Counted from the first letter of the stretch, positions 2,322 to 5,162 are shown. The stretch is 5,162 bases of DNA from a virus (IMGVR_UViG_2671180574_000017); one strand, 5' to 3'. Numbers and translations are program-made. The notes: generated from the sequence alone by a model not told the origin.

Positions 2322-2544
2322 AGCCCCTCCGGAGAGGGCTGGAGAGTGGCGCTATGTGCCATTGCATGATGCCGGGTGCCTCCCGGTGAATTCAGTACCA
2401 GCACCTGAATCCGCGATTATCCCATATACCTACTCGCTGATTGCCCCTCCGCACAGGGGGATTCACCATGCCAGTTTCTTTTAACAAACTCCCCGCAAAA
2501 CAGACAACTGTCAACCGTCTGAATTGTGAGACATTTAAAAAAAA
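2322..2544. repeat. Third, diverged copy (roughly 97% identity) of the 223-bp core of the module (matches 796-1018 and 3857-4079)
   Basis: Direct comparison shows a handful of substitutions and one 1-bp indel; homology ends sharply on both sides. Confidence 0.85.
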
Positions 2545-2562
2545 GGCCCGCAAAAGCGAGCC
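2537..2562 (-). terminator. Rho-independent terminator immediately downstream of the minus-strand tRNA-Arg
   Basis: Minus-strand RNA GGCUCGC-UUUU-GCGGGCC (one U-G wobble) followed by eight U residues. Confidence 0.7.
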
Positions 2563-2576
2563 AGGGAAAATAAGTG

Positions 2577-2653
2577 TGGCGCGTTGTACTGGATTCGAAC
2601 CAGTGACCGATTGCTTAGAAGGCAATTGCTCTGTCCGGCTGAGCTAACAACGC
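2577..2653 (-). tRNA. tRNA-Arg (anticodon UCU)
   Basis: Manual cloverleaf: acceptor GCGTTGT/ACAACGC, D-stem GCTC/GAGC, anticodon stem ATTGC/GCAAT with loop CTTCTAA, T-arm ACTGG-TTCGAAT-CCAGT, discriminator G, encoded CCA. Confidence 0.85.
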
Positions 2654-2666
2654 ATGATGCAGATAA

Positions 2667-2743
2667 TGGACCGCCATCGGGGACTTGAACCCCGCGCAGC
2701 CAGCTTCGAAGGCTGGCGCTCTTTCCTGATGAGCTAATGGCGG
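2667..2743 (-). tRNA. tRNA-Arg (anticodon UCG), phage-type
   Basis: Manual cloverleaf: acceptor CCGCCAT/ATGGCGG, D-stem GCTC/GAGC, anticodon stem CCAGC/GCTGG with loop CTTCGAA, T-arm CGGGG-TTCAAGT-CCCCG, encoded CCA. Confidence 0.75.
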
Positions 2744-2750
2744 TATGTGA

Positions 2751-2796
2751 TGGTGGCCCTTGCTGGATTTGAACCAGCGACCTGGCGATTATGAGT
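2751..2796 (-). tRNA. 3' partial tRNA-Ile (CAU): 46 nt from the anticodon loop to CCA, with the 5' half replaced by unrelated DNA (att-like remnant)
   Basis: Identical to the 3' 46 nt of the intact tRNA at 4910-4985; identity stops at the anticodon stem-loop boundary. Confidence 0.8.
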
Positions 2797-2905
2797 TGGT
2801 TGATAACCCTTTACTTACAGATACTTAGCGATACTTTTCAATACCTTAGCATTTTTTAAAACTACTGTATAAATACCTGTATATACCCCAAAATACTTCT
2901 TTACG

Positions 2906-2953
2906 GTATCCTATAGGTATCCTGGAGCAGAACAAGCGATTTTCCAGGATACC
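2906..2953. promoter_or_regulatory. Cluster of GGTATCCT repeats (two direct, one inverted) between the tRNA fragment and the integrase start; candidate integrase arm-type sites or int operator
   Basis: GGTATCCT at 2906-2913 and 2916-2923; perfect 11-bp inverted repeat GGTATCCTGGA (2916-2926) / TCCAGGATACC (2943-2953). Confidence 0.35.
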
Positions 2954-2976
2954 AGATCGCTTGGTGGGGTGTATGA

Positions 2977-3528
2977 GTGAAATTATTCAGATTCTCTAAA
3001 GTAAAAATTGCAGAACTGCCAACGCCGGAACATGGACAGGTCGAATATGGTGATACGGAGGTTAACGGGCTGCGTGTCCGTGTAGGTTCGTCTGGTGTGA
3101 AAAGTTTCTGCATTTCCCGTAAGCGTAACGGAAAATTTATTCGTGCAACGCTGGGGCGTTTTCCTGATCTGAGCGTGGATAATGCCAGGGCTAAAGCTAT
3201 GGAACTCCTTGGCGAAGTCGCCACAACGGGGATAAATCCGAACATAGCAAAGCGCACTAACAACAAGGCCATGATAACGCTGAGTGAGGCGATTGACGCC
3301 TACGTAAAAAATCGTGGCCACCGCCTGAAACCCGCCACAGAAAAACAGTACCGCAGCATATTACAGAATTATTCCGGTGACTGGATGGCCCATACCCTCG
3401 CCAGTATTTCCCGCGAACGGGTGGAACAACGGCATAAGGCCATCACTGATGGGGCTGTATGGTTCGGTGCTGATAAAACCACGTTACGGGCTGGGGTTGG
3501 TACAGGAAGCAAGGCACAGGCCGATTAG
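2977..3528 (+). CDS. Tyrosine recombinase / phage integrase, N-terminal fragment (arm-binding and SAM-like domains), 3'-truncated at the module boundary
   Basis: GTG start after a GGTGGGG RBS-like run; the N-terminal ~150 aa shows the typical arm-binding-domain pattern (GL.VRV...G.KSF......GK.....[15 protein letters not shown]...V..GINP) and then a linker ([11 protein letters not shown]...[13 protein letters not shown]); no catalytic domain; the stop codon overlaps the first base of the module. Confidence 0.75.
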
Positions 3529-4274
3529 GAATATCTTTTTCAGTCATATGGAGTAAAATAAAATTAATAATCTGGTATCAATCGGATGCTTTCTTACCTC
3601 CTGAAAGTATATTTACACTGACTCACACAGGCATCATGCTCAATAACAAAGTGCTACCTGTAACCATTTACAACGTAGTACCATTCAATAAAACATTCTG
3701 GAATTCAATCAAAAATAGCCAGGAATGCCCTACAAATACAGATAACGTATTGAATGAATGCTTTAATAACCGTTGCACTCTGCAAATATGTCCTTATGGA
3801 CTAAAACAACAAAGTCCATAAGGAGTTTACTCACATCTGACAAAATCAATATAAACAGCCCCTCCGGAGAGGGGCTGGAGAGTGGCGCTATGTGCCATTG
3901 CATGGTGCCGGGTGCCTCCCGGTGAATTCAGTACCAGCACCTGAATCCGCGATTATCCCATATACCTACTCGCTGATTGCCCCTCCGCACAGGGGGATTC
4001 ACCATGCCAGTTTCTTTTAACAAACTCCCCGCAAACCAGACAACAGTCAACCGCCTGAATTGTGAAGTATTTAAAAATTTCTCCCGCTAACTGATACCCG
4101 GCTAACAGTCTGGCGTTTTCTTTTTCAGCAACGGGAAAGCAACAACCACCACACCCGCCACCAGCACACCGTCAGCCAGCACTGACATTATCCGGCTGCT
4201 GCAATGCCATTCACAAAAACAGTAAGCAATCACTTTTTACCGTAACAGGTGATAATCCAGATATGTATCTACCC
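3528..4274. repeat. 747-bp duplicated module, copy 2 (100% identical to 467-1213)
   Basis: See copy 1; here it lies between the truncated integrase (plus) and a truncated minus-strand ORF. Confidence 0.9.
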
Positions 4275-4622
4275 CAGATGAGTAATCCGAAGTTCATCCA
4301 TACCACAGGTCCTGGCTATTCTGTTGTACTCCTGAACAAGAGCAAATAATTCTGAATTAGCAACCATGAACTCATCGCAAACCCTCTGTATAGCATCACT
4401 ATTCAGAATAATAACGTCTCTTCCCGAAAGACGATCAGGAGTACAGAACAAAACTGTCAAACGGCTGAAGGCCTTTGCTCGTGCTGCATTGACTATATCA
4501 ATACGCTGCCTAAGGATGAAACACCCCGACGCCTCATCAATATTCACTCTACCCACACCATATGAATGATAAATATTTAATGCTGAAAAAACCATTAGAC
4601 CGTATAACAAACACTCAATCAA
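4269..4622 (-). CDS. Hypothetical protein, probably a 3'-truncated fragment (last codon and stop are supplied by the module end)
   Basis: ORF-track ORF (TTG start; internal ATG at codon 10); AT-rich codon usage; no recognisable homology; the frame ends exactly at the module boundary. Confidence 0.3.
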   Translation of the reverse strand: MIECLLYGLMVFSALNIYHSYGVGRVNIDEASGCFILRQRIDIVNAARAKAFSRLTVLFCTPDRLSGRDVIILNSDAIQRVCDEFMVANSELFALVQEYNRIARTCGMDELRITHLG

Positions 4623-4732: not shown

Positions 4733-4809
4733 TGGCGCGCTGTACTGGATTCGAACCAGTGACCGATTGCTTAGAAGGCAATTGCTCTGTCCGGCTGAGC
4801 TAACAACGC
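4733..4809 (-). tRNA. tRNA-Arg (anticodon UCU)
   Basis: Same cloverleaf as 2577-2653, with one acceptor-stem change giving a G-U pair; encoded CCA. Confidence 0.85.
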
Positions 4810-4822
4810 TGAATACCGATAA

Positions 4823-4902
4823 TGGACCGCCATCGGGGACCCGCCCCCGCACCAACAACCCTGTTATCGTGTCGTCTGCTCTTCCTGATAAGCTAATGGC
4901 GG
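4823..4902 (-). pseudogene. Degenerate tRNA-like gene (homolog of the tRNA-Arg UCG at 2667-2743); acceptor and D-arm kept, anticodon arm and T-loop replaced
   Basis: Both termini match 2667-2743 (TGGACCGCCATCGGGGAC ... CTAATGGCGG); the interior is a GC-rich 45-nt segment with no canonical anticodon arm and no TTC T-loop. Confidence 0.55.
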
Positions 4903-4909
4903 TTTGTGA

Positions 4910-4985
4910 TGGTGGCCCTTGCTGGATTTGAACCAGCGACCTGGCGATTATGAGTCGCTCGCTCTCACCACTGAGCTAAAGGGCC
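4910..4985 (-). tRNA. tRNA-Ile2 (anticodon CAU, lysidine-type; ileX/ileZ-like)
   Basis: Manual cloverleaf: acceptor GGCCCTT/AAGGGCC, D-arm GCTC-AGTGGTGA-GAGC, anticodon loop CTCATAA, T-arm GCTGG-TTCAAAT-CCAGC, discriminator A, CCA; closely resembles E. coli ileX as recalled. Confidence 0.85.
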
Positions 4986-5028
4986 GGGAGCAGAATAATA
5001 ACGGTCCGTAATTAATTCCGCAATAAAA

Positions 5029-5048
5029 AACCCGCTCGGCGGCGGGTT
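5029..5048 (-). terminator. Intrinsic terminator upstream of the tRNA array (tR'-like position)
   Basis: Minus-strand hairpin AACCCGC-CGCCGA-GCGGGTT followed by TTTTTTATT. Confidence 0.5.
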
Positions 5049-5095
5049 GTAGAAACTCTTCTAACGTCAGGCATAAAACGCCCATAGTTATGACG

Positions 5096-5123
5096 AATTT
5101 ACCACAGATTCCGGAAAAATCAA
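5096..5123 (-). promoter_or_regulatory. Candidate lambdoid late promoter (PR'-like) reading leftward into the terminator and tRNA array
   Basis: On the minus strand: TTGATT, 16-bp spacer, TAAATT, then ...ATGGG; this resembles the lambda PR' -10 TAAATT and ATGGG transcript start as recalled from memory. Confidence 0.35.
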
Positions 5124-5162
5124 CCTAGTTACCTTTTTTAACTGCCGCTCAGCCCATGCTTC

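Follow-up and report, generated by a model that had tools for sequence, protein, structure and literature searches.

On its minus strand the window, a 5,162-nt stretch of viral DNA (IMGVR_UViG_2671180574_000017), opens within a lambda-family Q antiterminator gene and carries its 3′ end (5162-5088). The first 75 nt of this strand code for ...EAWAERQLKKVTR, the C-terminus of a 273-aa Q, with the final 24 codons translating as EAWAERQLKKVTRLIFPESVVNSS ahead of a TAA stop at 5090-5088. These last 24 codons are the portion of the gene inside the window, the remainder lying outside it, and in alignment they match at 100% the end of the 273-aa Q in relatives that have the gene intact directly upstream (phage mEp460_ev081, E. 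coli 042 and many IMG/VR prophages). Indeed, the 903 nt from 5162 to 4260 are 98% identical to mEp460_ev081, whose annotated Q ends exactly at the start of the window, and the same Q is found at 94-100% identity on 80 IMG/VR prophage contigs. In the prophages of E. coli 042 and FDAARGOS_944 the gene order is DUF968-RusA-Q(273 aa)-tRNA-Ile-tRNA-Arg and, further along, IraM-DUF1737-holin-lysozyme. The full-length protein of these relatives belongs to Pfam family PF03589 (E=1.9e-54) and aligns with the Q-lambda structure PDB 7ubm (E=1e-39) over residues 1-113 and 182-273. When it is compared with the Q proteins of lambda, P22, phi80, ES18, mEp237, YeP2 and others, the N-terminal torus segment and a C-terminal VTR are conserved, and four zinc-ribbon cysteines are invariant across the aligned Q-lambda-family proteins. 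It also has an inserted stretch of about 68 aa, present in phi80 Q too, in which a second CxxC...CxxC motif lies. By homology, the upstream gene is thus a lambda-family Q of the phi80-like long form, as the prediction of a Q gene upstream on this strand in the initial annotation had anticipated.

The allele of Q present here is one copy short in an 8-bp AGGTAACA repeat, and the protein consequently runs 11 aa beyond its usual ...KKVTR* end and into the promoter. This extension is found in only about 5 of the 84 related loci (37 distinct haplotypes) that were compared. In Q-lambda it is this terminus that makes contact with RNA polymerase, and the copy of Q encoded here may therefore be impaired.

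The sequence signals at the 3′ end of Q are those of a sigma-70 promoter, PR′ (5123-5096), which overlaps the gene and reads TTGATT-16 nt-TGgTAAATT, with its -35 at 5123-5118 and an extended -10 at 5104-5096 (TGg 5104-5102; TAAATT 5101-5096). Each hexamer matches the consensus at 4/6 positions, and a generic promoter scan omits the site, whose score of 8/12 falls below the threshold of 9. The -35 is invariant in the 37 haplotypes and occupies the same position as the -35 of lambda, P22 and phi80, while the extended -10 is nearly invariant in relatives and its hexamer is exactly that of lambda PR′. In position the promoter as a whole corresponds to PR′ as annotated in phi80 and to the P22 late promoter. 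Within the spacer, TTCCGGA (5116-5110) is a candidate Q-binding element; this is a positional guess, as it begins at the offset from the -35 at which the phi80 record annotates its Q-binding site, TCGCGGA. The -35/-10 spacer of this promoter has the form TTTCC(G/C)GAA(T/A)CTG, as do those of mEp237 and Erwinia phage 49, which have Qs at 50-54% identity, and the lambda QBE sequence is absent from it.

Six nucleotides past the -10, after a gap of cgtcat, begins AACTAT (5089-5084) followed by GGG (5083-5081), a putative sigma-dependent pause element with the spacing and class of the lambda/P22 AACGAT-GGG. The TTGATT/TAAATT promoter and the ATGGG (5085-5081) that the initial annotation had placed after it are both read in the sequence, the latter falling within this element. 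We infer that transcription starts at A5089, the P22 record giving the 5′ nucleotide of its late RNA as the first A of AACGAT, and a sigma-dependent pause is predicted around +16/+17 (5074-5073). The equivalent hexamer in E. coli 042 is AACGAT-GGG, exactly as in lambda. Among the 84 loci the hexamer takes the forms AACGAT (46), AATGAT (15), AACTAT (7), AATAAT (7), AAAGAT (4) and AACAAT (3); A2, A5, T6 and the GGG are kept throughout and variation is confined to positions 3-4, which is the pattern expected of a target for sigma region 2.

An intrinsic terminator, tR′ (5048-5022), follows, as identified by terminator scan and in the MFE fold of the leader. Its hairpin, AACCCGC-cgccga-GCGGGTT at 5048-5029, has a 7-bp stem and a 6-nt loop, and its U-run extends down to about 5022. 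Counted from the inferred start it spans +42 to about +66, which agrees with the distance of about 45-65 nt noted in the initial annotation, and the PR′ leader RNA would accordingly be about 66 nt long (A5089 to about 5024). In the 84 loci the stem is conserved and differences occur only in the loop, and a Stx2k phage with a Q only 38% identical has a near-identical hairpin at the same place. Part of the 84 loci diverge directly after the U-run (column ~101), so that, judged by the alignment, a mosaic breakpoint lies right behind it. Three other candidates in this region were rejected. A Trp_leader at 5022-5128 scored 25.7 bits in Rfam against a gathering score of 41 (E=0.049) and is an artefact of the terminator hairpin; a 45-aa ORF (5085-4948) that starts at the ATG of the ATGGG crosses the terminator and enters ileZ; and for a 5′ inverted repeat in Q-lambda-family leaders the individual stems were not significant against shuffles (P = 0.02-0.8), a homologous stem being absent from the window's family.

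Downstream of tR′ lie two tRNA genes that flank the remnant of a third. The first, ileZ (4985-4910; anticodon CAT), is called by ARAGORN and by Rfam (72.5 bits), is identical to the 933W ileZ at 76/76 positions and is annotated as tRNA-Ile (AUA) in relatives. The last, argO (4809-4733), is a tRNA-Arg(TCT) called by the same two methods (Rfam 68 bits) that matches the 933W argO at 75/77 positions. The element between them (4902-4823) received no tRNA call from ARAGORN or Rfam at E<=1. Alignment to intact argN and its fold identify it as an 80-nt tRNA-like remnant, pseudo-argN, which keeps the acceptor, D and T stems; a 7-bp stem closed by a loop of 3 nt stands in place of the anticodon arm, and a G-run in place of the T-loop. 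The poly-G varies from 4 to 14 in length among relatives, and together with the 3-nt loop in place of an anticodon loop and the lack of a covariance-model match at E<=1 this led us to reject an unusual but real tRNA; the middle element is a decayed argN pseudo-tRNA. The Stx-phage module ileZ-argN-argO is therefore represented here by ileZ and argO, without argN (TCG), and the only intact argN in the window (2667-2743) belongs to a second, unrelated array. In the 84 loci the arrangement ileZ-pseudo-argN-argO occurs about 60 times, an intact argN(TCG) 6 times and no tRNAs 12 times, with a few Lys/Thr/Gly forms. The initial annotation was thus right about the spacers, which at 7 and 13 nt fall in the predicted range of 7-13 nt, and wrong in counting three tRNA genes; its statement that the array had no room for a promoter of its own also fails. 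The 43-nt gap before ileZ holds a candidate promoter, pT (5023-4995), consisting of TTGCGG (5023-5018), 17 nt and TATTAT (5000-4995), that ends 9 nt from ileZ; the tail of the tR′ U-run reaches into its -35. It is homologous to the 'pT; putative tRNA promoter' of the 933W record (TTGCAG-17-TATTAT), which is directly ahead of ileZ there. As the module carries this candidate, the tRNAs need not rely on Q alone. Our literature searches on ileZ/argO with antitermination found no reports, and those on ileZ/argN/argO and qut stem-loops returned nothing relevant.

Beyond argO is orf117 (4622-4269, minus strand; probable start ATG 4595), an uncharacterised phage protein of PHROG 2873 (E=3.8e-70) that is called as a gene in 487 blocks of the collection. 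It is AT-rich, with AGA/AGG making up 6 of its 11 Arg codons and ATA 3 of its 10 Ile codons; its 6 synonymous and 10 non-synonymous variable sites are too few for a codon-position test to be informative. The rest of the contiguous late-region segment (4233-3528, colinear with intact prophages) comprises a DUF3927 gene (4233-4102, minus strand), an STnc100 sRNA with its own terminator (4036-3847, minus strand) and a truncated, convergent IraM (3636-3821, plus strand). Between argO and the STnc100-like sequence, orf117 and DUF3927 occupy the slot that holds stxAB in 933W and phiP27, and there are no stx ORFs downstream of the tRNAs in the window. The toxin-gene slot after argO in Stx phages is therefore filled here by an uncharacterised ORF. 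Furthermore, the tRNA and orf117 module follows a PF06323-family Q in L089, and so is exchanged between Q types.

In a BLAST map the entire stretch from 5162 to 3528 (Q′, PR′, tR′, tRNAs, orf117, DUF3927, STnc100 and truncated IraM) is colinear with intact prophages, and this colinearity stops at 3528, 1.6 kb downstream. Below that point come an integrase fragment (P4-type, N-terminal 183 aa); a second array, of the 933W type, made up of an ileZ 3′ fragment, argN, argO and a terminator, which is joined straight to post-stx sequence with its stx slot empty; a third STnc100-like copy; a partial IS600; and an exact 747-bp duplicate of 3528-4274. The proposal that everything downstream of the tRNAs occupies the cargo position thus holds from 4733 down to 3528 and does not extend below 3528, where the DNA is rearranged, derives from other elements and includes the duplicate. 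No lysis or structural genes lie downstream of the cassette within the window, whereas in intact relatives the holin, lysozyme and terminase genes are found at least 2.4 kb downstream. Since its operon breaks off at 3528, the cassette is probably a remnant, with lysis genes no longer under its control. The junction at 3528 has no exact counterpart in the species-representative genomes, the truncated integrase product has no entry on record, and the relatives retrieved with orf117 lack this arrangement. IS600 and the lack of any full-length match in E. coli suggest that the prophage remnant probably resides in a Shigella-like strain.

Comparison with known systems places the upstream half of this arrangement with lambda and phi80 and the downstream half with the Stx phages. 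Lambda and the window share the PF03589 Q family, the 273-aa protein aligning end to end with the solved Q-lambda structure, and the position of Q directly upstream of a promoter with a 6-nt gap to an AACNAT-class hexamer, GGG and a terminator thereafter. Set side by side, lambda TTGACT-17-TAAATT-tgactc-AACGAT-GGG and window TTGATT-16-TAAATT-cgtcat-AACTAT-GGG match at every functionally defined position of promoter and pause, and the likeness to known PR′/qut regions that had been predicted is in this respect borne out. The window differs from lambda in its longer Q (273 aa, with the insertion of about 68 aa), in a spacer that is unrelated to the 17-nt lambda spacer holding the QBE and that brings an extended -10 TG, and in the tRNAs and cargo that come between tR′ and the lysis genes. 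Its leader of about 66 nt is also shorter than the lambda 6S RNA, which is 194 nt long. Phi80 (gp17 Q; JX871397) is closer in its Q, a long form that is 41% identical with the same zinc-ribbon-like insertion; its annotated Q-binding site begins one base past the -35, where the window has TTCCGGA, its pause hexamer is AACGCT-GGG, and it too has a short terminator-ended leader, but its gap from -10 to hexamer is 7 nt rather than 6 and the downstream tRNA genes are absent. P22 likewise has a Q-lambda-family antiterminator (gene 23), an annotated promoter (P-late) and a qut-like site, and its t-late at +31 to +59 gives a leader of about 59 nt against the 66 nt or so predicted for the window; its Q is of the short form (207 aa, 28% identical), its spacer is of the lambda QBE type and it lacks the tRNA module.

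The resemblance to 933W is of a different kind. Its tRNA module and the pT-like 40 nt upstream are the same as in the window, a hairpin at +27 is similar to tR′, and the order of Q, late promoter, terminator, tRNAs, cargo, STnc100-like region, DUF1737/esterase and holin is shared, whereas its Q is of the non-homologous family PF06530 and its PR′/qut sequence is unrelated. Apart from the terminator hairpin, the only part shared by the two leaders, no similarity was found between the window and the 933W PR′/qut region, as is to be expected since the Q families differ. In 933W, furthermore, about 370 nt and a second terminator separate PR′ from the tRNAs, stx genes stand where the window has orf117 and DUF3927, and argN is kept in the order ileZ-argN-argO where the array studied here has a pseudogene. 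In phiP27, where stx2e follows directly, ileZ and argO are set apart by a gap of about 100 nt without a call, which is akin to the middle element here. The reading of the locus as lambdoid, Q-antiterminated late control therefore stands for a system of the lambda/phi80 type and not of the 933W or 82 type, the tRNA module and the terminator hairpin being the only parts that resemble 933W.

A cassette of this type has been defined by its Q gene, PR′, SDPE, terminator and downstream genes, with three Q families given by Pfam accession (PMC9388147). The Q gene, PR′, pause element and terminator of the Q-lambda type can all be recognised in the window, and late (lysis/morphogenesis) genes follow in intact relatives and not in the window itself; the cassette is a member by descent with a truncated operon. 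We propose that the segment from 5162 down to 4733 on the minus strand is, very probably, a Q-dependent lambdoid late cassette fused to an Stx-phage-type tRNA module, and we suggest the following model for its action. Sigma-70 RNA polymerase would initiate constitutively at PR′ (TTGATT-16-TGgTAAATT), around A5089, and re-binding of sigma region 2 to the non-template AACTAT-GGG would then cause a promoter-proximal pause near +16. In the absence of Q the polymerase would escape and terminate at tR′ (5048-5022), releasing the leader of about 66 nt. When present, Q would bind its site in the spacer (candidate TTCCGGA), load onto the paused complex and confer resistance to the terminator, so that antiterminated transcription could run through ileZ, pseudo-argN, argO and orf117/DUF3927. 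In intact relatives this read-through would continue into the holin, lysozyme and structural genes.

One could object that the match to PR′ and its pause element arose by chance in the 3′ end of a gene and that the hairpin merely terminates the Q transcript, as both hexamers are only 4/6 and promoter-like sites are no commoner in the window than in shuffles. This reading is effectively refuted by the comparative data, and we consider it extremely improbable. The composite TAAATT-N6-AACNAT-GGG is expected only 0.01 times per window by chance and is found once, at PR′. The same layout recurs, fixed relative to Q, in lambda, P22, phi80, mEp237, YeP2 and the Stx2k phage, whose Qs are 28-54% identical; a -10, 6-7 nt, AANNNT, GGG/GGA/AGA and a terminator come after Q in mEp237, the Stx2k phage, YeP2, phi80, ES18 and Erwinia phage 49, and 170 of 175 further diverse Q-lambda-family loci have the layout 3′ of Q. 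In the 84 related loci, moreover, the -35, spacer, -10, GGG and terminator stem hardly vary at all, a pattern of conservation that fits functional constraint. A more serious alternative is that the cassette is a non-functional relic, its signals intact in a scrambled prophage whose Q may be defective or absent. The integrase fragment, second tRNA array, IS600 and 747-bp duplicate past 3528, with neither holin nor lysozyme, favour this, as do the rare 11-aa extension of Q and the fact that no E. coli genome matches more than 63% of the window's length; on the other hand, apparently intact prophages and a sequenced phage (98% identity) have every one of the regulatory elements in identical or nearly identical form, and PR′ fires without Q, so the leader and, via read-through or pT, the tRNAs and orf117 could still be made. 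We regard such a relic as almost, if not quite, an even prospect.

Two further alternatives concern the products of the cassette rather than its identity. The tRNAs of a lysogen might come mainly from pT, with tR′ insulating them from PR′ and Q-dependent read-through adding to their supply only in lytic growth, and if this were true the array would not be purely under Q control. In addition to the 933W annotation at the homologous site, the segment of about 40 nt before ileZ moves with the tRNA module regardless of what lies upstream: it accompanies ileZ in all contexts with TATTAT invariant, and in 933W, phiP27 and L089 the gene upstream of pT-ileZ is that of a methylase and not tR′. Against this, the -35 is weak, agreeing with the consensus at 3/6 positions, and occurs in several forms (TTGCAG, TTGAAG, TTGCGG or TTGCGA), the generic promoter scan does not report the site, the 933W record itself calls pT merely 'putative', and conservation of the segment may reflect no more than the boundary of a mobile module. 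We hold expression mainly from pT to be a tenable but tentative reading that falls somewhat below probable. Alternatively, the leader of about 66 nt might double as a constitutive, terminator-ended, trans-acting sRNA like StxS of the Stx phages. The PR′ of Stx phages and of lambda is constitutively active and the terminated leader can serve as an sRNA, as StxS does; antiterminated late promoters have indeed been suggested by the same authors as a source of sRNAs (PMC7547250). The leader here would end in a stem-loop and U-run and is highly conserved over the 84 loci, yet this conservation is already accounted for by the roles of promoter, pause and terminator, only the hairpin is common to 933W, and the leader folds no better than shuffles (z = -1.3). 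An sRNA function thus seems unlikely to us, and for the leader we retain the simpler reading of a terminated PR′ transcript.

As a Q-dependent late cassette, then, the locus is of an ordinary, textbook type, with near-identical copies in hundreds of sequenced E. coli prophages. Its value lies rather in giving explicit coordinates to the PR′, pause element, tR′ and candidate Q-binding site of the phi80-like long-form Q subfamily, for which the database records we examined annotate the Q gene only. The natural alleles at hexamer positions 3-4, moreover, could provide a panel for studies of pause strength against Q loading. Among near-identical prophages, +3 and +4, which lie in the pause hexamer, and +11 are the top multi-allelic, high-frequency polymorphic sites in 500 nt, and the variants at all three turn up repeatedly on the same flanking haplotypes. 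One possible cause is selection on the strength of the pause, which would in turn adjust how Q loads, the basal expression of late genes, tRNAs and cargo, or the time of lysis. Another is transcription-associated mutagenesis of the single-stranded non-template strand in the long-lived paused bubble of a constitutive promoter. That the initial transcribed region of the late promoter is more than a passive switch is a speculation to which we give little weight, and the recurrence of +3, +4 and +11 alleles is recorded here as an observation on natural variation at the pause site.

The pT-ileZ...orf117 module, headed on the minus strand by the candidate tRNA promoter pT (4995-5023), is common to the window and to the ENA contig L089, while the modules that lie upstream of it differ. 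In the window it is preceded by a Q gene of the Q-lambda family and the terminator tR' (5022-5048), whereas in L089 the upstream Q belongs to family PF06323 and has kinase, phosphatase and methylase genes after it. Hairpins resembling tR' recur elsewhere, as the first hairpin after the late promoter PR' in 933W (L005) resembles the tR' of the window's family and one hairpin of an Stx2k phage is nearly the same as it. This distribution of modules and hairpins illustrates mosaic exchange at the joint between terminator and pT.

The Q gene itself varies at its C-terminal end, where an 8-bp unit, AGGTAACA (5123-5132, minus strand), is present in one, two or three copies among relatives. Q proteins with two or three copies terminate in ...KKVTR*, while the single copy of the window results in a Q that is longer by 11 residues (LIFPESVVNSS) and whose stop codon overlaps the predicted PR' transcription start. 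Because the C-terminus of Q-lambda refolds and contacts RNA polymerase (PMC9388147), the window's allele, with its 11 additional C-terminal residues, may by analogy be impaired.

In the predicted PR' transcript, positions +3, +4 and +11 are the most multi-allelic of the high-frequency polymorphic sites within 500 nt when near-identical prophages are compared across 82 related loci. The first two are positions 3-4 of the pause hexamer (within 5081-5089, minus strand) and the third lies at 5079 on the same strand. Across these 82 loci, columns with at least three alleles number 8 of 100 in the regulatory region versus 1 of 380 in the Q-coding sequence, and a single flanking haplotype recurrently bears differing hexamer alleles. 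Variation at +3/+4/+11 could mean that these positions are free to change, that pause strength is being tuned, or that transcription itself promotes mutagenesis there.

A separate observation concerns the initial transcribed region of late promoters in the Q-lambda family, where bases around +17 to +25 tend to be complementary to the pause hexamer. The comparison comprised loci L004, L093-L099 and L103-L270 together with 5092-5060 of the window, and apparent covariation between subfamilies was seen in the pairs AACGA/TCGTT, AATGAT/GTCATT, TAACAG/TTGTTA and TAAGGAT/GTTCTTA. Single stems between the two segments were not significant against shuffled sequences, and a homologous stem is absent from the window's own family. 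We found no prior description of this complementarity in the searchable literature.

Within the first tRNA array, pseudo-argN (4823-4902, minus strand) still has its acceptor, D and T stems as well as a CCA end, although its anticodon arm has been replaced and the T-loop position is occupied by a poly-G tract of 4-14 G across relatives. This form is far commoner than intact argN (about 60 versus 6 loci), and phiP27, like the window, has an uncalled gap separating ileZ from argO. The toxin slot directly after argO is occupied by orf117 (4269-4622, minus strand; PHROG 2873, of unknown function), an AT-rich gene in which AGA, AGG and ATA codons are abundant. Hundreds of assemblies carry it as a called gene, in draft assemblies it lies mostly on 2-5 kb contigs, and its annotation is absent from the E. 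coli 042 RefSeq record and from mEp460_ev081.

A second tRNA array, of the 933W type and 95% identical to 933W (2539-2796, minus strand), comprises a 46-nt 3' fragment of ileZ, intact argN(TCG), argO(TCT) and the terminator found ahead of stx2A in 933W. Next after this array, with nothing in between, comes the STnc100-like sequence that in 933W lies beyond stxB, so that the array is an 'empty' stx slot. Abutting its truncated ileZ is a fragment of a 475-aa P4-type integrase (Arm-DNA-bind_3; 2797-3528, plus strand) made up of its 183 N-terminal residues. This integrase stands at the head of a P4-like satellite (Icd-like, primase) beside argN-argO in E. coli O111:H8, and in other strains occupies a chromosomal site by nfeF/aer; this placement suggests that an ileZ carried by a prophage served as the integration site of a satellite.

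In its overall layout, the window resembles a scramble mediated by IS elements. It carries partial IS600 copies (1-39 = 2096-2134; 1215-2134) and a 747-bp exact duplication (467-1213 = 3528-4274) that spans IraM', STnc100, DUF3927 and the 3' end of orf117. The prophage sRNA STnc100, tied in a recent preprint to Stx-phage late regions and PasD sRNAs, is present in three minus-strand copies, each with its own terminator, at 786-975 (132 bits), 2311-2500 (124 bits) and 3847-4036 (132 bits).
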